Assembly: GCA_040751795.1 (NCBI GenBank)
Contig: JBFMHR010000004.1
Coordinates: 223,959-287,958 of the forward strand
Direction: 5' to 3'
DNA: 64,000 bases
From: Thermoplasmatota archaeon
GTDB lineage: Archaea > Thermoplasmatota > Thermoplasmata > UBA10834
Under the pieces are notes generated by a model. That model was given only the letters and a program-made list of their open reading frames with translations, was not told where the DNA came from and ran no database searches. Both the position numbers and the translations under genes were made by a program. This document shows positions 1,950 to 12,454 of the stretch, one piece after another; position 1 is the stretch's first letter, and each line of letters opens with the position of its first letter.

Positions 1950-3845
1950 TCACACCGCGGGCAGCAGGACGTGGAACAGGGCCCCCTGCGACGGGTCGCC
2001 CTCCACGCGGTCCTCGACCCAGATGCGCCCGCCGTACTTGTCCACGATCGTGCGCACTATCGACAGCCCAAGGCCGATGCCCTTCCCGCCGGCCAGCCTC
2101 GGCGTGAAGCGCTCGAAGATCTGCTCCTTCTTCTCGTCGGGCACCCCGACGCCCCTGTCCGCGACGGTGATGTCCCAGAACCTCTTGCCCTCCTCCGTGA
2201 CGGGCGCTATCTCGATGTCGATCCTCACCGTCTCGTGCGGGTCGTACTTCACGGAGTTGCTCAGGAGGTTCTGGAAGAGGTCGTGGATGAGCTCGTTCCC
2301 CCGCACGAGGCACTGGCTCTCCGCGCACTTCGTGGTGATCTCCAGCTTCTTGTCCGTCCTGACGGCCCTCATCTCCTCCGCGAGGCTGGCGATGGTGGAG
2401 ACGAGGTCCACGGTGAGCATCTTCTCGGAGCCCCTCTCGCGTATGTAGATGAGCTTCCTGATGCGGTTGATGAGCTCGTTGCTCAGCTCGAGCTGCTTCA
2501 TCGCGACGCCGATCGCCTTCTCCTTCAGCTCCGGCGAGGCCTCGGGCCTCGCCGCGACGTCCAGGTACGAGCCTATGCCGGTGTTGTAGTTGCTGATGTC
2601 GTGGAAGAGGAGCCTGTTCATCATGTCGAGGTCCTCGTTCGCCTGGACGGTCTCCCTGATCAGCTGGCTGTTCCTGAAGGCGAGGGAGATGATGGAGCTG
2701 AAGACGCTCATGAGCTCGAGGAGGTCCTTCTCGAACATGACGTCCCTCTGCCTGTCGGTCGCGTAGATGACGCCGACGACGTCGTTCGCGCGGTCCCTGA
2801 GGGGGACCGCGAAGAGGTCGAACCGGTCGTCCTCCTGCCCAGGCGCCTGCCCCGCCCGGTCAGGCCCATGGACGTCCGCCCCCGGCGCCTTGAAGGGCAT
2901 CATCGAGGGCCGGTCCGCGGCGAGCTGCTTCGCCGGCGTCCAGTAGAGGTCGTCGGTGAACCTGAACATGTCGTCGCAGTCCCTGTACACCGCGTCCCTG
3001 GTCAGGGCCTCCTCCTTGTCGGGGAGGCCGCTGGGCGAAATGAAGACATACCTGCTGGCGCGCGCGTCCCAAAGCGCCCCCCGGGCCTTCATGAACCCCA
3101 GCTCGGACGTCAGGAAGTCCGTCGCGGTCAGCAGTATCAGCTCCCCCCTCCTGAGGGAGACCATCCTCGTCGCTATGTTGAGCATCTTCGCGAATATCCT
3201 GGCCCTGCTGCTGTTCGCTGCCAGGAGGGCCTCCTGCGAGCGCCACACGCCGGCGAGTTCCAGGGCGACCGAGGCGATCGCCGCCAGGACCTCCACCCTG
3301 GACACGACCTCCTTGGACGGTATCATGCCGTCCGTGGTCTCGAGGATCTCGAGGGCGCCCAGCTCCCTCCCGTCCTTGTCGAACAGGATGGTGTCGATGA
3401 AGTCCATCATGTGCCAGTGCGCCGGCGATTCCCTGGGGGGGACCTCCTGGGGGAAGCCCCGGTAGAACGCCGAGTCGAAGTCGTCGATCTTGACGTTCTC
3501 GCCCGGCGCGAGGTAGGTCAGGGCCCCCAGCTTCCTGTAGACCTGGAGGGTCTCGTCCCACGAGTCCCTCGAGTAGGTCACGGACATGATGTCCCTCGCC
3601 TGGTCCTCCGGGTACCCGACGACGAACTTGATGTGCCACTCGCCCGTGCTCCGGTCGGTGACGTAGATGACGAGCTTCCTGATGGGGAACAGCGTCATCA
3701 TCGAGCGGCCTATGGTCTCGAGGATGCGGTCCTCGTCCTTGTTGTAGAGCACCGCCAGGGCTATGTCGAGCACCCTGCTCGCCAGGGCCGTCTCCTCGGC
3801 GGCGGGGGCCGGGCGCGGCGCGGTGTCCGTTGGGTCCCCTTCCAT
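1950..3845 (-). CDS. GAF-domain sensor histidine kinase
   Basis: H-box LFHDISN, N-box LFQNLLSNSVKY, DRGVG, GIGLGLSIV; N-terminal GAF-like segments (FAVPLRD...VGVIY); start taken at ATG 3845. Confidence 0.88.
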   Translation of the reverse strand: MEGDPTDTAPRPAPAAEETALASRVLDIALAVLYNKDEDRILETIGRSMMTLFPIRKLVIYVTDRSTGEWHIKFVVGYPEDQARDIMSVTYSRDSWDETLQVYRKLGALTYLAPGENVKIDDFDSAFYRGFPQEVPPRESPAHWHMMDFIDTILFDKDGRELGALEILETTDGMIPSKEVVSRVEVLAAIASVALELAGVWRSQEALLAANSSRARIFAKMLNIATRMVSLRRGELILLTATDFLTSELGFMKARGALWDARASRYVFISPSGLPDKEEALTRDAVYRDCDDMFRFTDDLYWTPAKQLAADRPSMMPFKAPGADVHGPDRAGQAPGQEDDRFDLFAVPLRDRANDVVGVIYATDRQRDVMFEKDLLELMSVFSSIISLAFRNSQLIRETVQANEDLDMMNRLLFHDISNYNTGIGSYLDVAARPEASPELKEKAIGVAMKQLELSNELINRIRKLIYIRERGSEKMLTVDLVSTIASLAEEMRAVRTDKKLEITTKCAESQCLVRGNELIHDLFQNLLSNSVKYDPHETVRIDIEIAPVTEEGKRFWDITVADRGVGVPDEKKEQIFERFTPRLAGGKGIGLGLSIVRTIVDKYGGRIWVEDRVEGDPSQGALFHVLLPAV

Positions 3846-3999
3846 GCTACCGGGGCGGGTATAGGCATACCTGAATATTAACCGCTCAGTCACCAGTCGC
3901 CCCGCCAGGTTGCGCGGCCGCGCGGGACGGCCCCACGATGCCCCTAAATAGGGGGAACATATACCCCATTTCAGGAAAGGAGGCCGAGGGGGCCCTGCG

Positions 4000-5328: not shown

Positions 5329-6003
5329 TCATCCCTTCTTCTCCAGCGACGCCCTGTGGATGACGTAGGTCCCCGAGTCCCTGGACCACCTGGCCTCGGC
5401 CTCCTCCACGTGCACCGACCTCGAGAAGCTCGGGCCGTCGAGGACGAAGGTCTCGATCTCCCCGCCCTCGCCGGAGACGCTGATCCGGTACCTGTCGCGG
5501 AGCCGCTCGAGCTCCTTGATCGTGTGCGAGGTGATGACCTTGCCCAGCCACCCCTCGTCGAACCCGTGGGCGTACACGCCCACGACCATGAACCTGAACC
5601 CCGCGCGGACCATGTCCTCGAGGAGCATGCTCTGGTCCTTCCTCCACAGCGGCGAGTGCAGGGGCCTCCCGAGCCTGTGGCAGATGCCGTTCAGCCTGGA
5701 CCACTGGTAGTCCGACGCGATCGCGCCCGACACGAACCCGTCGACGTCCTCCCCCTTCATCAGCTCCTCGACGTCGTCGAGCTCCTTCTCCTCCTCCCCG
5801 GGGCTCTCCCTCGTCCTTATCGGGATGCCCATCGCCTCGGCCTGGAGCGACGTCCAGCGGATGTTGGGGACATGGAACATGTAGGAGTCCTCGGCGCGAG
5901 GGATGACGGTCAGGAGGCTCGCGACCTCCCACCCCTGCTGCTGCACCAGGTACGCCGCGTACGCGGAGTCCTTGCCCCCGGAGAACAGGACGGAGACCCT
6001 CAT
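5329..6003 (-). CDS. Diphthine-ammonia ligase (Dph6/PP-loop ATPase family)
   Basis: LFSGGKDS, SYMFH, GAIASDYQ, PLWRKDQ, GEGGEIETFVLD. Confidence 0.88.
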   Translation of the reverse strand: MRVSVLFSGGKDSAYAAYLVQQQGWEVASLLTVIPRAEDSYMFHVPNIRWTSLQAEAMGIPIRTRESPGEEEKELDDVEELMKGEDVDGFVSGAIASDYQWSRLNGICHRLGRPLHSPLWRKDQSMLLEDMVRAGFRFMVVGVYAHGFDEGWLGKVITSHTIKELERLRDRYRISVSGEGGEIETFVLDGPSFSRSVHVEEAEARWSRDSGTYVIHRASLEKKG

Positions 6004-6043
6004 GGCCACGGTGTATCCCCCGCGCGCGTATATACGGGTTCGG

Positions 6044-7618
6044 TCAGGTCACGAGGGTCGCGGTGAAGACGAAGGCCAGGACCGCGAGGAAGAACGCGAC
6101 GAGCGGGACCCTGTACGGCCAGTGCTCGTTCAGCACCTGGCGCGCCCCGTAGTAGCCGAACGGGACGGCGGCGGCCAGCTCCAGGACGCCGGTCATCACC
6201 GCACCGCCGTCGAGGAGGAACAGGCCGTAGACGGCGAGGCCGGCCGCGAGAGTCACAGGCAGGGCGGCGACCAGGTGCGTCGACAGCTCCTTCGACCCGG
6301 TCCTCTCCCTGGCGGCCCTGACCCAGAGCAGGACGGCGCCGAGCAGCGCCACGGAGCCGGTGGCGACCCAGTCGATCGCCTCGGAGCACTCCCACGCCAG
6401 CTCAGTCGCGGTCAGCAGGAGGAGGAACCCCCCGACTGCGGCGAAGGCGTCGAGGACGGCGGCGTCCCTGTCCATGGGGTGGAACGTGGCCAGCACCACC
6501 ATCACTGCGCCGGAAATCCCGACGATCAGCGCCATGCCCACCTCCACCTCCCCGAAGTCCACCAGGACCATGGTGGCGGCCGCGACGAGCATCATCAGGA
6601 TGCCGGACGAGAGGAGGAAGTCGCCGCGGAACTCCGGGCGGTACGCGTGGACCGCCACGTAGGCGAGGATCAGTGCACCTATGATCGGGGCCAGGGTCGT
6701 GAAGGTCTCCTCGGAGTCGATCTCAGCGACCGTGAAGTGCCAGACCGCGATGAGCCCGGGGCTCACGGCCAGCGTGTAGAACACCGCCCTCACCCTGCTC
6801 GCCGGCTTCACCGGCTTGCGCGCCTTGCGCCCACCCCTTCTCATCAGGGCCCAGACCGCGATGCCTATGCCCACCGTCAGCAGGGCCAGGAACATCAGGC
6901 AGGGGATGTCCTCCAGCCAGAGGAACAGAACCAATGCGGCGGATGCGGCCACCAAGGGGACGGCAGCGCTCGACCACCCCTGCCTGGTTGGAGCAGGCGC
7001 CTCCTCGGCGGCCCCCTCCTTCCTCAGGGCGGAGACGATCCTGTACGGCCTCCCGCAGCCGGGGCAGTCGAACCCGACCTCGTCCTCCACGGACAGGTTG
7101 TCGACCTCGATCTGCTTCTTGCACGTCGGGCAGAACACGGAAACGACCCTCTTCGCCGGGGAGGCCATGACGGCTATCTCGTCCCTGACGGGCCCCCCCC
7201 TGTCCATCTGGTTGATGACCGAGGCCAGGCTCGCCTTGCGCGCAGTCACGATCTCGGAGACCTTGAGGGTCCTGGTGCCGTCAGGGTCCTCGAACGTGAC
7301 CTCGACCTCGAAGAGCTGCTGGCGCACCGAGGACGCGGCGTCCGCGCCCTTCGGCGTGACGCAGTAGGCGTTCTGCCTCCTGTCCGCTCCCTCGACGTGC
7401 CCCTTGACGCACTCGACGAGCCCGTCCTTCGCGAGCTCCTGCAGCGCGACCGCTACGTGGCTCCTGCGCAGGCCGAGGTGGTCAGACAGGCCCTTCTGCG
7501 TGACCTCGAACGGGAAGACGACATCGTCCGGCCCGCACCTGTGGAGGTACAGCTGGACGAGCACCTTCTCCCTCGCCTTGAGCCTCAGTCCCGCCTGGCC
7601 GTCCTCTCCTGCGCCCAA
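6044..7618 (-). CDS. Membrane protein with N-terminal winged-HTH, Zn ribbon (CPTC...CPGC) and ~10 TM helices
   Basis: TQKGLSDHLGLRRSHVAVALQEL..GLV helix-turn-helix and wing; two CxxC pairs; long hydrophobic C-terminal half; TTG start. Confidence 0.7.
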   Translation of the reverse strand: MGAGEDGQAGLRLKAREKVLVQLYLHRCGPDDVVFPFEVTQKGLSDHLGLRRSHVAVALQELAKDGLVECVKGHVEGADRRQNAYCVTPKGADAASSVRQQLFEVEVTFEDPDGTRTLKVSEIVTARKASLASVINQMDRGGPVRDEIAVMASPAKRVVSVFCPTCKKQIEVDNLSVEDEVGFDCPGCGRPYRIVSALRKEGAAEEAPAPTRQGWSSAAVPLVAASAALVLFLWLEDIPCLMFLALLTVGIGIAVWALMRRGGRKARKPVKPASRVRAVFYTLAVSPGLIAVWHFTVAEIDSEETFTTLAPIIGALILAYVAVHAYRPEFRGDFLLSSGILMMLVAAATMVLVDFGEVEVGMALIVGISGAVMVVLATFHPMDRDAAVLDAFAAVGGFLLLLTATELAWECSEAIDWVATGSVALLGAVLLWVRAARERTGSKELSTHLVAALPVTLAAGLAVYGLFLLDGGAVMTGVLELAAAVPFGYYGARQVLNEHWPYRVPLVAFFLAVLAFVFTATLVT

Positions 7619-7685
7619 ATCCCGAACCCCTCGAACCGACCTGATGAATCGCCCGTGAGTTAATCCTTTGCCGGCGGGGGCGCCC

Positions 7686-10600
7686 TCACGACGCCTCGAA
7701 CACCAGCGGCAGGGTCTCCGACCTGAGCTCCTCGGGGTTGTACATGTCCCACGCGACGACCCCCTGGAGCGTGCTCGTGATGGGCATCTCCGCCACTAGC
7801 GAGTAGTCGAACTCGACGGCGGCGCCCGACACCACGTCGGTGATGTACACCACGACCTGGCGGTCGTTGCAGTCGTACGAGGATATGACGCCCTGGGCGT
7901 CGAGCGCGTCGAACTCGGAGAGGTCGAACGCGAAGCCCATGGGCGCGCGCAGGTCGACGAGGACCATCTTGAGCATCTCCGCGGTCCCGTTGTACAGGAG
8001 GTAGAGGTGGGCCCTGAGCCTGTCGTCGACCGATATCGTCGTCGTGTCGTATGTGACCTCGAGGGTCAGGAACGGGGACGACTCCGGCTCGTCTGGCCAG
8101 GGGACGTACTGCTCCAGGAAGACCGAGTAGAGGACGGACCCGTCCCCCGTGCAGGAGACGGTCACGTTGGTGACGTTCGCGAGGTAGGGCCTGAGGTCGA
8201 CGAGGTAGGTGACGTCCCTGTTGAACTCGCTCATGTCGATGGTCTCGACGACCGAGCCCTCGACGAGGACCTGGACCTGCACATCCTCGACGGAGTTCTC
8301 CCCGGCGACCGCGTCGAGGGCGTGGAACGCCACCACCGTGTCCTGGGTGGACGACCAGCCCCCGAGCTCGCCCCTGTGGTCGAGGAGGTACTTGACGGCC
8401 CCTTGGACGGTGGCGTGGTGCCCAGTCTCCCCGTGGAGGGCCATGGCGGCGTAGCCCGTGGTCTCTATGATCCTCGGGGAGGAGCCTTCCCAGACGTAGT
8501 CGCCGTCGGAGATGAGGTTCACGCCGCCGCTCCAGTGCACGGTGCCGTTGTCGGCGATCTTGAGCTCCTCGAGCCTCTCCGCGATGTCGGCGCGGAGCGC
8601 GGAGGAGCCGTCGCCGGCCTGCAGCAGCAGGAGCGAGAGCGAGAGGCTGTACGGGTCGTCCTGTATCGTGGAGACCTCGTCCTCGACGAACTCGATCGCC
8701 GCCTGGATGTGCGGGTCGTCGCCCGGGACCCCCGAGTGCAGGAGCGCCCTCGCGATGTACCCTGTCGCCGCGACCTCCTTGGACTGGAGGACGGGGTTGT
8801 TGAACTCGTAGATGCCCCAGTCCGGGAACTCCCACGAGCCGTCGTCCTGCTGGATCGACATGAGCCAGCTCTGCATGTCCGTGACGATGTCCTCGTCGAG
8901 CCCGAAGCCCGCGTTGATGGCGTCCTGGAAGGCGATGAGGCCCCAGGAGGTCAGCCACGGGTGCACGTCCTCGTCCCCCGGGAACCAGACGATGCCCCTG
9001 CCCTCGCCGTTGTTCGCCTCGAGCAGGTACATCAGCTCGTGCTGGAGCCCCTGGTTCACGATGCTCTCGTATTCGAACATCATCTCGGGGGTGGCGCCGA
9101 GCTCCACGACGGTGGCGTAGGCCAGTATGTCAATCGAGAGCATCGACAGGGACTGCTCCCCGCATCCGGACACGTGCTGGATGAACTCGTCCACGCCCTC
9201 GAGGAGGACGGCGTCTATGCCGCCCTGGACCTTGACCCAAGCGTTCGCGCTGCCCTCGACCATGTCAGGCTGGAGGTAGAGGGTGTGCTCCGCGCTGCCG
9301 TCGCCGACCTCGCCGTTGTAGAGCGTCTCGACCCTCTTGCCGTCGGGCACGACCTCCATCGGCCTGATGACGGCGTCCGAGGCCTCCGGCGAGGAGGCGA
9401 ACACCGAGACCGTGTGCCACCCGACCTTCTCGGCGACGATCGTGAACGACACGGAGGTGACGTAGTTGGCCGGCACGGTCACTTCCTGCGCCGCGGGGGA
9501 GAGCAGGGTGAGCCATGTCTCGTCGGCCAGCGTCACGTCGACGACCTGCTCCGTGTCGAGGTAGTTGTAGACCATGATGCTGAGCGGGAACTCGTCGCCC
9601 CTGACGACCGACGCCGGTATGTCCGGCTCGACGAAGAAGGGCTGGAACACCGTCACGGACCCGGAGCCCGTGCCGATCTGCCCGTCTGCTGTGGAGGCGA
9701 TGACGTCCACCTGCCACGACGTGATCGAGTCAGGGGCGGTGAGGGATATGTTGGCCCAGCCTCCCTCGTCCGTCAGGAGGCAGGGGTTCCAGTACCACGT
9801 CTCAGGGAAGTACTGGCGCACTATCGACGGCCTTGAGGCCGAGCCTCCGCCGGCGTCGGTCGAGGTCTCGTCGCCGTAGGCGGTGTCCGTGTCCCAGCCG
9901 AAGTCCATGGAGGCCTCCTGAGGCACCATGTTCCACTCATCGGCGTTAGGGTTCCTCGGATCGAACTCGCCGTCCTGGCTGCTGCTCGTCCCGAACCCGA
10001 GGGTCATGACGTAGACCGCCGCCATGCCCGCCAATGCGAGGGCCACGACGACGACCGCGAGGGCGAGGACGGGCACGGCCGTCCTCCTCCCCTTCGTGCC
10101 TATGGCGATCATGAGCCCCAGCATTGCGCAGAGGTAGACGGCGAACCAGTATCCCATGGTCGCGTCCTCCCTGATCTGCTCGGCGGCGGCCAGGTTCTCC
10201 GGCCATGTGGTCGTCACGCGCGCCTCGTCCGTCTCGGGGATGACCTCCGAGGTGTCGGAGGGGAGGGCGCCGACGCCCGCGTATACGTACGTGAGTATCT
10301 GGTACTGGGGGATGACGAACTCCGCGTCGAGCCCGAAGATGATCTCCTCGAAGCCCTGGAACATGCTCCCGACCTCGTAGACGGCCTCGTCCACGACGGA
10401 GACGCCGAGCGCGGCCACCGCCGGCGACCCGGAGTATTCGGCGTAGAACGACAGGCCGACCTCGTCCCTCGGGTAGTAGGAATCGTTGTCGGCGCTCACA
10501 GAGACGGACAGCGTGGACGAGCCGCCCACGGAGAAGGTCACGGCGTCCCTCGTGACGCCCATGTCGGCCTCGATCTTGTAGACCCTGAGCTGCGCGAACG

Positions 10601-12125
10601 GCTCGGCGTCGGGCCCCATGGTGAGCTGCAGGGAGGCCTGCCCGTCGTCCAGCTGGACGACGCCCCTGTCCACGAGGTAGCCGCGAGAGACCAGGTCCCA
10701 GTACACGTTCCTGGTCATGGAGTCGCCGGAGTACATGATGTCGAAGGAGGCCGTGTCGCCGACGTCGTATGACGCCTGGTCGGCCACGACCTTCAGGCCC
10801 GTCGCGGACTCGACGTCGACGTAGACCACGGCTTCGCCGGAGGCGCTGCTCCCGCGGACTCGCGCGGAGGTCTGGCCATCATATGTGAATGTCAGCGCTG
10901 CGACTCCCCTCCCGTCGGTCACGGAGGAGGCCTCGTTGACGTAGTAGTTGCCCTTCAAGAGGCCAAGCTGGACGGTCGCGTTGGCCACCGGCTCGCCGTT
11001 GGGGGACCTTGCAATCACGTAGTACCTGGACTGCATCCCGTCGACGCAGCTGTCGGTGAGCACCGAGAGCACTAGTCCGCTCGGCGCCACGGGGATGACC
11101 CTGTACCTGACCTCCGAGTGGCCTGCGGTGTCCGTCACGGTGAGGTTGAGCTGGATGTACCCGTTCCCCCCGGTCTCCGACAGGCCCACGGCATACTCCA
11201 CCGCCGGGACGGAGAAGACAGCCTCGCCGTCGTAGAGGGAGAACGTGCCGGTGTAGTACGTCTCCCAGACACCCAGATATACGTTCGCCTCGACGTCCAC
11301 CGTGCCGGCGACGGCCTCGCCGAAGAAGTACTCGGCCGAGACGACCCCGTTGATGGGGTCGTCGACCTCGTACCAGTCTTTGGTGCCCAGGAGGTCCACC
11401 CGGAACTTGGGGAGGACGTAGTCCTTGACCGCCAGGGCCTTGGTGACGGTCCTCTCGCCGATCGTGGCGGATATCGTGTAAGTCCCCTGGTTGAGCTGGT
11501 CCGACAGCCACAGGTCGTACGCGCATATGCCGTACCCGTCGGGGGAGAGGAGCTTCTTGAAGATCTTGTCCCCGTTGGGGTCGAGCACCTCGGCGAGGAG
11601 CTGGGACTCCTGGGGAAGCGGGTCCATGCCCGCGTATGTCAGGAACCTCATGTGTATGGTGTCGCCGGGCTTGTAGACGGGCTTGTCGGTGGTGATCACG
11701 ATCCTGACGCTGTCGTCGAGCACGGTGGTGGTCTCGACGACGTCCACGCCCGAGTTGACGACCAGCTTGACCTTGCCCGCGGCCGCGGGGAACTCTATGG
11801 TCGGGGCGGCGGAGCCGTCGGCGCCCGTCCTGCCCGACCAGACGAGAGCGTCCGAGTCGTCGGTGACGAGCCTCACGTCGACCTCCTGACCTCCGACGGG
11901 CTCGCCGTCGCCGTCCATGGCGAAGACCATGATCGTCGACGGGCCGCCCGCGGCGACCCGGTCGGGCACGTAGGCCACCAGGTTGAGCTTGTTCGCGAGG
12001 TAGGCGTCGTCGACGTCCTCCAGGGCTATCCCGATGGCCCCGACGGCCATCAGGGCCGTGATGAATGCCACCACGAGCCTCTCCTTCCTGTCCTTCTCGA
12101 CCAACCGGGCGACGGCCTTCCTCAT
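7686..12125 (-). CDS. Alpha-2-macroglobulin / thioester-containing protein (TEP), membrane-anchored
   Basis: TDKPVYKPGD, YVLPKF, RQYFPETWYW, PDSITSW, FQPFFV..P.SVVRGDE, GCGEQ thioester (9153-9164), GGWSSTQDTVVAFHAL, C-terminal MVLVDL..PMGF...WDMYNPE receptor-binding-like domain. Confidence 0.93.
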   Translation of the reverse strand: MRKAVARLVEKDRKERLVVAFITALMAVGAIGIALEDVDDAYLANKLNLVAYVPDRVAAGGPSTIMVFAMDGDGEPVGGQEVDVRLVTDDSDALVWSGRTGADGSAAPTIEFPAAAGKVKLVVNSGVDVVETTTVLDDSVRIVITTDKPVYKPGDTIHMRFLTYAGMDPLPQESQLLAEVLDPNGDKIFKKLLSPDGYGICAYDLWLSDQLNQGTYTISATIGERTVTKALAVKDYVLPKFRVDLLGTKDWYEVDDPINGVVSAEYFFGEAVAGTVDVEANVYLGVWETYYTGTFSLYDGEAVFSVPAVEYAVGLSETGGNGYIQLNLTVTDTAGHSEVRYRVIPVAPSGLVLSVLTDSCVDGMQSRYYVIARSPNGEPVANATVQLGLLKGNYYVNEASSVTDGRGVAALTFTYDGQTSARVRGSSASGEAVVYVDVESATGLKVVADQASYDVGDTASFDIMYSGDSMTRNVYWDLVSRGYLVDRGVVQLDDGQASLQLTMGPDAEPFAQLRVYKIEADMGVTRDAVTFSVGGSSTLSVSVSADNDSYYPRDEVGLSFYAEYSGSPAVAALGVSVVDEAVYEVGSMFQGFEEIIFGLDAEFVIPQYQILTYVYAGVGALPSDTSEVIPETDEARVTTTWPENLAAAEQIREDATMGYWFAVYLCAMLGLMIAIGTKGRRTAVPVLALAVVVVALALAGMAAVYVMTLGFGTSSSQDGEFDPRNPNADEWNMVPQEASMDFGWDTDTAYGDETSTDAGGGSASRPSIVRQYFPETWYWNPCLLTDEGGWANISLTAPDSITSWQVDVIASTADGQIGTGSGSVTVFQPFFVEPDIPASVVRGDEFPLSIMVYNYLDTEQVVDVTLADETWLTLLSPAAQEVTVPANYVTSVSFTIVAEKVGWHTVSVFASSPEASDAVIRPMEVVPDGKRVETLYNGEVGDGSAEHTLYLQPDMVEGSANAWVKVQGGIDAVLLEGVDEFIQHVSGCGEQSLSMLSIDILAYATVVELGATPEMMFEYESIVNQGLQHELMYLLEANNGEGRGIVWFPGDEDVHPWLTSWGLIAFQDAINAGFGLDEDIVTDMQSWLMSIQQDDGSWEFPDWGIYEFNNPVLQSKEVAATGYIARALLHSGVPGDDPHIQAAIEFVEDEVSTIQDDPYSLSLSLLLLQAGDGSSALRADIAERLEELKIADNGTVHWSGGVNLISDGDYVWEGSSPRIIETTGYAAMALHGETGHHATVQGAVKYLLDHRGELGGWSSTQDTVVAFHALDAVAGENSVEDVQVQVLVEGSVVETIDMSEFNRDVTYLVDLRPYLANVTNVTVSCTGDGSVLYSVFLEQYVPWPDEPESSPFLTLEVTYDTTTISVDDRLRAHLYLLYNGTAEMLKMVLVDLRAPMGFAFDLSEFDALDAQGVISSYDCNDRQVVVYITDVVSGAAVEFDYSLVAEMPITSTLQGVVAWDMYNPEELRSETLPLVFEAS

Positions 12126-12238
12126 GCTATCACTGATTTCGCCTACCGCCTCCGTCCTTCATGTACCCCCCCATGACATGTCATGGGCCTGGGCGACATC
12201 TCGGGCCGGCGCGATGGGGTTTATGTACGGATACGCTA

Positions 12239-12454
12239 ATGCAGAAATCCGTGTACTACTGCCCCAAGTGCGACAGGACCGTGTCCAGGGAGCGCCTCGA
12301 GCAGATCGAGGCGGACCTGGTCGGGAGGTTCGGCAAGAGCTGCCTCGCGACCATGCGGTGCCCTGTGTGCGACACGGACTTCATCGACCTCGGGGATGTC
12401 CGGCCCGGGGGTGAGGGACACGTCGGCGAGGCGCGCCGCATCGAGAAGGGCTGA
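12239..12454 (+). CDS. Small zinc-finger protein (CPKC...CPVC)
   Basis: ATG at 12239 just downstream of TATA-like TTTATGTA; two CxxC motifs; GC3-rich codons. Confidence 0.6.
   Translation: MQKSVYYCPKCDRTVSRERLEQIEADLVGRFGKSCLATMRCPVCDTDFIDLGDVRPGGEGHVGEARRIEKG

Follow-up and report, generated by a model that had tools for sequence, protein, structure and literature searches.

A thioester macroglobulin of Thermoplasmata archaea with a predicted transmembrane hairpin at its bait position and a co-inherited putative membrane-bound regulator

Why might the trigger of a protease trap be threaded through a membrane, and could the cell read what happens to it there? The question is raised by a gene for a protein of the thioester alpha-2-macroglobulin (A2M)/thioester-containing protein (TEP) family in a Thermoplasmatota archaeon (assembly GCA_040751795.1, contig JBFMHR010000004.1, positions 223,959 to 287,958 of the forward strand). 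We call this stretch of 64,000 nucleotides, which was analysed as a whole, the window; the genome to which it belongs comprises 2.05 Mb in 53 contigs, is 92.8% complete and has 65% G+C. The protein (P0001) carries two hydrophobic helices at the position of the bait, and its gene is followed on the same strand by one for a predicted transmembrane transcription regulator (P0269; Table 1). We found that the helices are kept at the bait position throughout the evaluable close relatives, and that the two genes appear to be inherited together as a two-gene operon. The pairing hints at a means, as yet undescribed, by which a cell could become aware of proteases that attack it.

A macroglobulin with hydrophobic helices at the bait position

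The gene is predicted to encode a complete thioester A2M. Pfam models were matched above their curated cut-offs for MG2 (residues 142-226; 54.6 bits), MG3 (236-282; 31.9 bits), A2M_BRD (444-584; 54.2 bits), A2M (776-866; 88.7 bits), TED_complement (975-1270; 99 bits) and A2M_recep (1386-1466; 27 bits), so that the domain order of the TEP family (MG, bait-region, A2M, TED, receptor-binding) is complete in the protein. The G+C content at third codon positions (GC3) reflects the codon bias of real genes in a genome of this composition. The motif FPETW stands at residue 773, within RQYFPETW at 770. Among sequences of the Protein Data Bank (PDB), the best matches were human A2M (E 7e-65), A2ML1, CD109, Xenopus A2M, mosquito TEP1 and C3/C4/C5, and the alignment with human A2M resumes at residue 767 of the archaeal protein, just past the A2M bait site. 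An AlphaFold2 model of residues 280-1479, made with 101 aligned rows, reached a mean predicted local distance difference test (pLDDT) of 79.4 and a predicted template modelling score (pTM) of 0.67, and its fold matches were native A2ML1 (7q1y, E 3.7e-57), CD109, C5, A2M, TEP1, ECAM and Sa-A2M (8.3e-44). Residues 440-800 searched alone against PDB sequences with phmmer gave no match at E <= 1e-3; an NCBIfam scan returned sub-threshold matches only, and none of the bMG Pfam models matched the protein at E <= 0.01.

The protein begins with a basic stretch and a hydrophobic helix that reads as a signal anchor or a signal peptide. A Cys lipobox was found neither in its first 40 residues nor in 14 N-termini from the clade of hairpin proteins described below, and all 14 of these share the same layout, followed by a motif resembling YN.D..YL..K.N. 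In both P0001 and P0269, transmembrane segments were called with hydropathy rules of our own making, together with the secondary structure of the AlphaFold models. On the Kyte-Doolittle (KD) scale, with a threshold of 1.6 over a 19-residue window, the whole of P0001 contains four hydrophobic stretches, namely the N-terminal one (15-38), a marginal window at residue 343 (1.63), and two that follow closely on each other, 657-677 and 679-712. The latter pair forms a putative hairpin (9990-10157) that comes after the BRD domain and before the A2M domain, shortly ahead of RQYFPETW. Net charge is -7 over the 51 residues before it, +3 in the loop and -9 over the 56 residues after it. The positive-inside rule orients such a hairpin by its basic loop, and the three hydrophobic helices together with these charges give a consistent predicted topology, with both large halves of the protein outside and the basic loop inside.

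In the AlphaFold2 model, helix a lies within a helix of residues 641-677 (362-398 in model numbering), with pLDDT 77-79 over its membrane part, and helix b is modelled as a helix of residues 685-706 (406-427 in model numbering) with pLDDT 50-61. Stretches with pLDDT below 50 flank the hairpin on both sides (about 598-642 and 700-765), and the helices do not appear to be modelled within the folded core, as judged from the confidence profile rather than from coordinates. Sequence identity over 86 clade rows was 45% and 26% in the two parts of the linker before the hairpin (601-625 and 626-656), 26% and 21% in helices a and b, and 20% in the stretch after the hairpin, compared with 62% in the A2M domain and 59% in TED. 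Both helices retain their character at these low identities, the hydrophobicity of helix a included. The stretch after the hairpin, which spans 39-156 residues in the clade, is the most variable region of all, as a bait would be; this disordered, acidic and hypervariable segment C-terminal of the hairpin is our candidate bait and may be protease-sensitive. The original prediction for this locus had described two hydrophobic helices joined by the loop TKGRRT ahead of RQYFPETW, an acidic, disordered, bait-like stretch after them and a signal or anchor helix at the N-terminus. All of these are present, with the hairpin and the acidic stretch inside 9830-10230, and the loop bears the basic charge that had been ascribed to it.

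Table 1. Features of the two-gene locus, with positions in the window (res, residues of P0001)
Feature	Positions	Strand	Observation
Thioester A2M/TEP-family gene (P0001)	7686..12125	-	Stop-free frame, 1479 aa, GC3 0.95
N-terminal hydrophobic helix, res 15-38, after basic stretch	12012..12083	-	KD maximum 2.62
Pre-hairpin linker, res 601-656	10158..10325	-	Acidic overall; first half conserved; pLDDT mostly <56
Predicted transmembrane helix a, res 657-677, MGYWFAVYLCAMLGLMIAIGT	10095..10157	-	KD 1.93
Basic loop TKGRRT, res 677-682	10080..10097	-	Charge +3; predicted cytoplasmic
Predicted transmembrane helix b, res 683-712, ending in LGFG motif	9990..10079	-	KD 2.87
Post-hairpin acidic, disordered, hypervariable linker (candidate bait), res 713-765	9831..9989	-	pLDDT 24-48
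Thioester motif CGEQ, res 988-991	9153..9164	-	Seen in the sequence; G-C-G-E-Q invariant across the 101 rows of the macroglobulin alignment A1
Partner gene (P0269), 524 aa	6044..7618	-	67 bp downstream of the macroglobulin gene; GC3 0.94
Candidate operator, palindrome TGACATGTCA	12174..12183	.	49-58 nt upstream of the A2M start codon
Upstream partial operator copy GAGATGTC	12195..12202	.	Composite pattern: one match in the genome

Conservation of the hairpin and the wider family

Relatives were collected in a word-seeded search that returned 567 proteins, of which the best 120 were used. Proteins P0001-P0094, which share 35-93% identity with the window protein and come from Thermoplasmata or Thermoplasmatota metagenome-assembled genomes where these are named, include 91 that could be evaluated, the fragments P0072, P0084 and P0093 being too short upstream of the motif. 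Two uncharged hydrophobic segments are present at the bait position in 82 of the 91 and one, by the strict rule, in the other nine; none of the proteins has no segment. The loop between the segments has a median of 6 residues (range 4-22) and a median charge of +3, and the median charge of both flanks is -7. The Methanosarcinales-type relatives P0095-P0113 have no hydrophobic segment at the bait position in any member. A FastTree phylogeny was built from the region C-terminal of the bait, with the insert excluded, for the 90 rows that remained after 70 of 160 proteins had been dropped (motif missing, or flanked by fewer than 450 residues on its N-terminal side or fewer than 600 on its C-terminal side). 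A single clade of 26 rows (support 100) unites the hairpin proteins, and its sister group (support 100) consists of five hairpin-less thioester rows of the Methanosarcinales type. By the strict rule, 25 of the 26 clade rows score 1-3 segments, and the remaining row, P0135, scored 0 but shows a hairpin by plain hydropathy. The alignment of homologues that the original prediction had called for thus keeps the hairpin in place, and these findings support the reading of the two segments as a transmembrane hairpin that has been conserved at the bait.

A misassembly, a frameshift or a chimeric join of genes would make the whole architecture an artefact. This explanation has a negligible chance of being right, and we regard it as refuted: the gene is a single open frame with the GC3 given above, the architecture recurs in 91/91 evaluable relatives from independent assemblies, and contigs assembled from other public sequencing runs, about 95% identical to the window, bridge the hairpin (X1 rec5, 8364-10747; X3 rec22, 9541-10598; X4 rec28, 8935-11580) with indels that are all in frame. 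The junction with the gene downstream is spanned by another two contigs. Hydropathy, the AlphaFold model and the bridging contigs thus point to none of the three objections foreseen in the original prediction, namely that the segments are not membrane-spanning, that they pack into the core, or that the region is misassembled.

The hairpin macroglobulin gene is a patchy accessory gene, because a query of bait plus hairpin matches 34 of 301 sampled genomes of the class at E <= 1e-8 and 12 of 39 within the home family; among the high-quality genomes of the class, the same query gives a count of 20 of 199, and 19 of its 88 genera are represented. Weak matches (E 1e-4 to 5e-4) to query residues 96-175, a segment made up of helix b and the linker that follows, were also given by small frames of 184-197 residues (G009:C28:2247-2486, G007:C108:1595-1798 and G011:C35:5819-6052), and these may be chance hydrophobic matches or small hairpin-related membrane proteins.

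An exhaustive, profile-free search with query residues 440-900 extended the family to 9,578 proteins at E <= 1e-3. Among 140 new representatives at 50% identity, 59 have at least two hydrophobic segments just upstream of the FPET motif, and many A2M-like representatives without a thioester have 4-8 such segments at the bait position. Thioester-less proteins with a bait insert are found among P0142-P0260 and are probably bacterial. In the tree, the bait-insert proteins make up several separate groups among insert-less ones, and a three-state label changed 13 times, compared with a mean of 41.2 when shuffled. The anti-sigma ZAS motif occurs at the N-terminus of 11 of the 140 representatives, nine of which also have a bait insert, and Pfam zf-HC2 was confirmed in all seven bait-helix proteins tested (P0146, P0147, P0177, P0203, P0214, P0215 and P0238). 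Other bait-insert proteins have a helical N-terminal extension without ZAS ahead of their first membrane helix. The zf-HC2 pattern (HxxxCxxC) is absent from the window protein, whose first helix is preceded by a mere 14 or so residues.

Native A2Ms have their bait inside the molecule, and it may be asked whether the helices are shielded there in the resting macroglobulin and freed on activation, for insertion into a target membrane or for oligomerisation. AlphaFold cannot model a membrane, so the placement of the helices in the model is uninformative on this point, which leaves room for such an arrangement. We nevertheless hold it to be very unlikely, since the basic loop and acidic flanks run through the clade, as the positive-inside rule expects of a hairpin that already spans the membrane at rest, and the flanking linkers of some 50 residues are predicted to be disordered rather than packed. 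A hydropathy as high as 2.87 over 30 residues makes a soluble precursor unlikely as well, and the 4-8 helices that relatives carry at the same site cannot hide in a cavity.

The downstream partner gene and a candidate operator

P0269 consists of a winged helix (about residues 15-103), a beta domain with a zinc ribbon, CPTC...CPGC (163-188), and 11 predicted membrane helices (219-523). The winged helix is recognised by Pfam HTH_Crp_2 (30.2 bits; cut-off 27), and the CPTC and CPGC motifs are invariant in an alignment of partner proteins (A2). The AlphaFold2 model has a mean pLDDT of 77.5 and contains all 11 helices (219-523), pLDDT being 80-96 beyond residue 275 or so; its N-terminal domain aligns to MarR/PadR/ArsR regulators over 92 residues (Z 11.6, root-mean-square deviation 3.2 A). 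Homologues of the partner have 6-11 hydrophobic segments by our rule. The membrane domain gave no Foldseek match in the PDB at E <= 1e-3 and has no conserved catalytic-type residues in alignment A2; structure matches of P0269 from a wider search span residues 2-118 only, and the best score in an Atlas feature search was 0.77. P0269 has both a DNA-binding domain and at least one transmembrane region, the two parts by which a transmembrane transcription regulator is defined in the text of PMC10269533. We predict it to be such a regulator, its winged helix being cytoplasmic and of the MarR/PadR type and accompanied by a zinc ribbon.

Several paralogues of the winged-helix domain occur in genome G000 and in each of the related genomes compared, where they head frames of 290-1100 residues (e.g., G000:C23:320669-321052 and G000:C34:57518-57796), and they hint at a large Thermoplasmata family of membrane or surface proteins with an N-terminal DNA-binding module. 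At L018:7083-9500 (+ strand; genome G029), a second match to the partner N-domain (E 1e-20) heads an 805-residue frame that has no hydrophobic segment by our rule and lies divergently upstream of the hairpin macroglobulin gene of G029. An open reading frame (ORF) on the + strand opposite the partner (5903-7663, 586 aa, ATG start, no Pfam match) was rejected as a spurious shadow of the partner, with GC3 of 0.68 vs 0.94, and several other long opposite-strand ORFs in this high-GC genome are likewise shadows.

The association of the two genes was followed at three levels. In the home family (f1), every genome that encodes the hairpin protein (13 of 13) also has a full-length match to the partner (E 1e-94 or better), and none of those that lack it does (0 of 12), the latter holding only winged-helix paralogues (E 1e-9 to 1e-15, residues about 3-160). 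For metagenomes, 80 loci were collected and 16 of them dropped, no + strand ORF with an FPET motif having been found in these by script; linkage was counted where the sequence downstream was 1.8 kb or longer, and a gene was called partner-like if its product matched the hidden Markov model of the N-domain at E <= 1e-14 and had 6-11 hydrophobic segments. A partner-like gene lies directly downstream on the same strand at 27 of 31 hairpin loci, with gaps of 10-773 bp, and was found beside none of five hairpin-less thioester genes and none of 11 thioester-less genes; these counts include near-copies (L034-37, L048/50/68, L046/69 and L066/87). In distant families of the class, after L019 and L124 had been dropped, the partner is present at 14 of 15 evaluable loci, L128 being the one without it. 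The macroglobulin and the putative regulator thus read, from gene order and joint occurrence, as a co-inherited two-gene operon.

Upstream of the macroglobulin gene, the palindrome TGACATGTCA is invariant in 7/7 aligned upstream regions, the rest of which aligns poorly, and this 10-mer has a single copy in the whole 2.05-Mb genome. The order of elements is GAGATGTC, then TGACATGTCA, then a TATA-like box. At 18 of 29 metagenome loci, a perfect palindrome NNACATGTNN is found between -260 and +90 relative to the start of the macroglobulin gene, with 19 sites in 10,133 nt of upstream sequence vs 4 in 398,704 nt elsewhere, an enrichment of about 190-fold, and the palindrome is present at 9 of 16 class-level loci. 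Among 12 further partner-bearing loci with upstream sequence, ten have an ACATGT core with imperfect flanks and two have none. The flanks of the operator vary symmetrically by lineage (TGAC.., TTAC.., CTAC.. and TCAC..). The recognition-helix motif RRSH of the partner pairs with GAC half-sites at 19 of 20 loci, and variants without RR pair with TAC or CAC at 11 of 11. Such covariation fits a direct read-out of the palindrome by the partner, which would make the palindrome its operator.

The neighbours of the locus encode diphthamide-synthase-like, KamA-like radical SAM, creatininase-like and RpiA proteins, with aIF2-alpha and S27e also nearby; these last two, with the names of relatives, mark the organism as an uncultured Thermoplasmata archaeon. 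No pbpC gene and no gene for a Yip1-like or ribophorin-like protein was seen among the neighbours. A divergent ORF on the + strand (12239-12454, 71 aa) was rejected as a third member of the module, as tblastn finds it only at the loci of close relatives. It has two CxxC pairs that resemble a zinc ribbon and 49-99% identity, overlaps the listed start of the creatininase-like gene, and probably reflects local synteny. About 2 kb past the two genes, beyond the diphthamide-synthase-like and KamA-like genes, the window also encodes a protein of 647 residues with a C-terminal, histidine-kinase-like HATPase_c domain (1950-3893, - strand). Among public sequencing runs, 20 DNA runs (shares <=0.20, 14 studies) and no RNA run were listed, which is uninformative on expression.

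A putative membrane-held trap, its proposed regulator and known macroglobulins

The eukaryotic TEPs matched above (A2M, A2ML1, CD109, TEP1 and C3/C4/C5) share the domain order, the CGEQ motif and the fold of the window protein, and the insert falls at the A2M bait site, which we take to be also the site of the anaphylatoxin domain of C3/C4/C5. CD109 is anchored by glycosylphosphatidylinositol and some insect TEPs are anchored C-terminally; to our knowledge, none of these eukaryotic TEPs has membrane helices in its bait. The window protein differs from them in that it is archaeal, has an N-terminal helix and a hairpin embedded in the bait, and is encoded alongside a regulator gene. Bacterial type I A2Ms (E. 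coli ECAM/YfhM and Salmonella Sa-A2M; fold matches 5a42 and 4u48) are likewise thioester traps at the cytoplasmic membrane, but the window protein has no lipobox Cys and no neighbouring pbpC gene (for PBP1c), matches eukaryote-type Pfam models, and has its predicted anchor in the bait rather than at the N-terminus alone.

A parallel in gene arrangement is MagD-MagB of Pseudomonas aeruginosa, a type II A2M that likewise resides at the inner membrane with an operon-encoded membrane partner. In the sections of PMC5764988 that describe it, MagD has neither a thioester nor a transmembrane segment of its own, MagB has one predicted helix and no DNA-binding domain, and MagD belongs to a six-gene operon, in contrast to the two-gene module seen here. 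A role in conflict or immunity has been proposed for archaeal proteins with TED domains and CxEQ motifs (Makarova et al. 2021, PMC8416519). The Methanolobus-type proteins of that study correspond to our hairpin-less sister group; its text reports signal peptides and varied domain orders, with no bait membrane helices and no mention of "Thermoplasmata". Transmembrane transcription regulators have been surveyed by Demey et al. (2023, PMC10269533), who counted 1,384 in archaea and found that 27% have more than two membrane segments; the text of that survey does not contain "macroglobulin" and describes no regulator paired with a thioester protein. In the literature covered, which takes in passages of PMC8416519, PMC5764988 and PMC10269533, we found no description of membrane helices in a bait, of a macroglobulin-regulator pair or of a macroglobulin fused to an anti-sigma domain, in line with the original prediction, which could not place the architecture among described TEPs.

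Our working model, which in our estimate stands an even chance of being right, is that a protease trap stitched into the membrane and a transmembrane transcription regulator form an autoregulated module in which the regulator senses the trap. The N-terminus would lie inside the cell and MG1-MG6 outside; helix a would then run inward, the basic loop would lie inside, and helix b would run outward, so that the linker, acidic and bait-like, would be outside together with the half made up of MG6b-MG7-CUB-TED-RBD. If the bait-loop hairpin spans the membrane in this way, the trigger of the trap is held at the cell surface. A protease arriving from outside would cut the exposed acidic linker, upon which the macroglobulin would rearrange on the large scale usual for such proteins and its thioester would capture the protease, with both fragments staying on the membrane. 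The regulator would feel the change within the membrane and would alter transcription of the operon from the ACATGT palindrome. That the regulator senses the state of the trap is the weakest of these steps.

The original prediction had supposed that cleavage of the bait could release the thioester half or send a signal across the membrane. Nothing in our results suggests shedding, and release is also disfavoured by the finding, given in PMC5764988, that MagD, once cleaved, held its two fragments together. A signal fares better and retains circumstantial support from the co-inherited putative regulator, the private candidate operator and the bacterial relatives fused to anti-sigma domains. The hairpin could hardly deliver such a signal by itself: a cytoplasmic loop of 4-22 residues is too small to signal alone, and hence any signal would need a partner.

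The main rival to a regulator that senses the trap is an anchor and nothing else, in which the hairpin retains the trap on a cell without an outer compartment and the regulator answers an unrelated cue, such as envelope stress, with no contact between the two. We grant this explanation a sizeable minority of the probability. The weakly conserved helix sequences and the short cytoplasmic loop are in keeping with it, as are the loci at which the partner is missing (L041, L060, L066, L087 and L128), and in known prokaryotic A2Ms a lipid anchor or a partner such as MagB keeps the protein at the inner membrane, according to the sections of PMC5764988 cited above. Other observations speak against it. 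All members examined already have a helix at the N-terminus, so that a second anchor, at the bait of all places, needs a reason; the partner is missing beside the hairpin-less sister proteins (0/5), it is gained and lost jointly with the hairpin protein within one family (13/13 vs 0/12), and anti-sigma domains are found fused to bacterial relatives that have bait inserts.

Several observations weigh against the sensing model. The low identity of the two helices is more readily expected of a generic anchor than of a specific interface between helices, and helix b is modelled with the modest pLDDT noted above. Linkage of the two genes would be equally well explained if the regulator controlled expression of the trap upon some other signal, and since there is a single hairpin clade, the hairpin and the partner may share one origin. 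Independent support comes from the repeated joint presence and absence in family f1, whose members, being kin, are not independent of one another. As L041, L060, L066, L087 and the genome of L128 indicate, a trap can occur with no regulator next to it. We found no fused trap-regulator protein and no longer form of the partner, which is weak evidence. Covariation between recognition helix and operator is confounded by phylogeny and shared ancestry, and the promoter elements, including the TATA-like box, were identified by eye in alignment A4. A complex prediction of the partner membrane domain (205-524, A2) with the hairpin (635-725, A1) scored 0.04, compared with a mark of 0.32, and weighs neither way. 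At L041, a convergent gene (8038-8583, - strand) encodes a 181-residue ArsR-like winged-helix protein with two membrane segments, possibly a replacement regulator.

A bolder form of the sensing model would make the pair a two-protein transmembrane signalling system with the thioester protein as sensor: attack on the bait would release a spring in the macroglobulin, the hairpin would pass the movement to the helix bundle of the regulator, and the operon would be switched on from its ACATGT palindrome. The bacterial bait-insert A2Ms fused to anti-sigma domains would be single-chain versions of the same device. We consider this form rather unlikely as it stands. If it were true, the A2M family would comprise ancient and widespread prokaryotic receptors for proteases, and thus for danger, and not inhibitors only.

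In the textbook view, A2Ms, TEPs and complement proteins are soluble or surface-attached traps and opsonins whose bait is a free loop, and a trigger embedded in the membrane, as predicted here throughout a clade, departs from that view. The conservative reading, that of a new way of anchoring a trap, would still widen the architectures of the family and bear on the prokaryotic roots of complement-like immunity. If the coupling to the regulator is real, the pair would be a simple two-gene system in which to study the read-out across a membrane of the conformational switch of a thioester protein, the means by which archaea sense hostile proteases, and the role of the many bacterial A2M-like proteins with polytopic bait inserts and anti-sigma domains.

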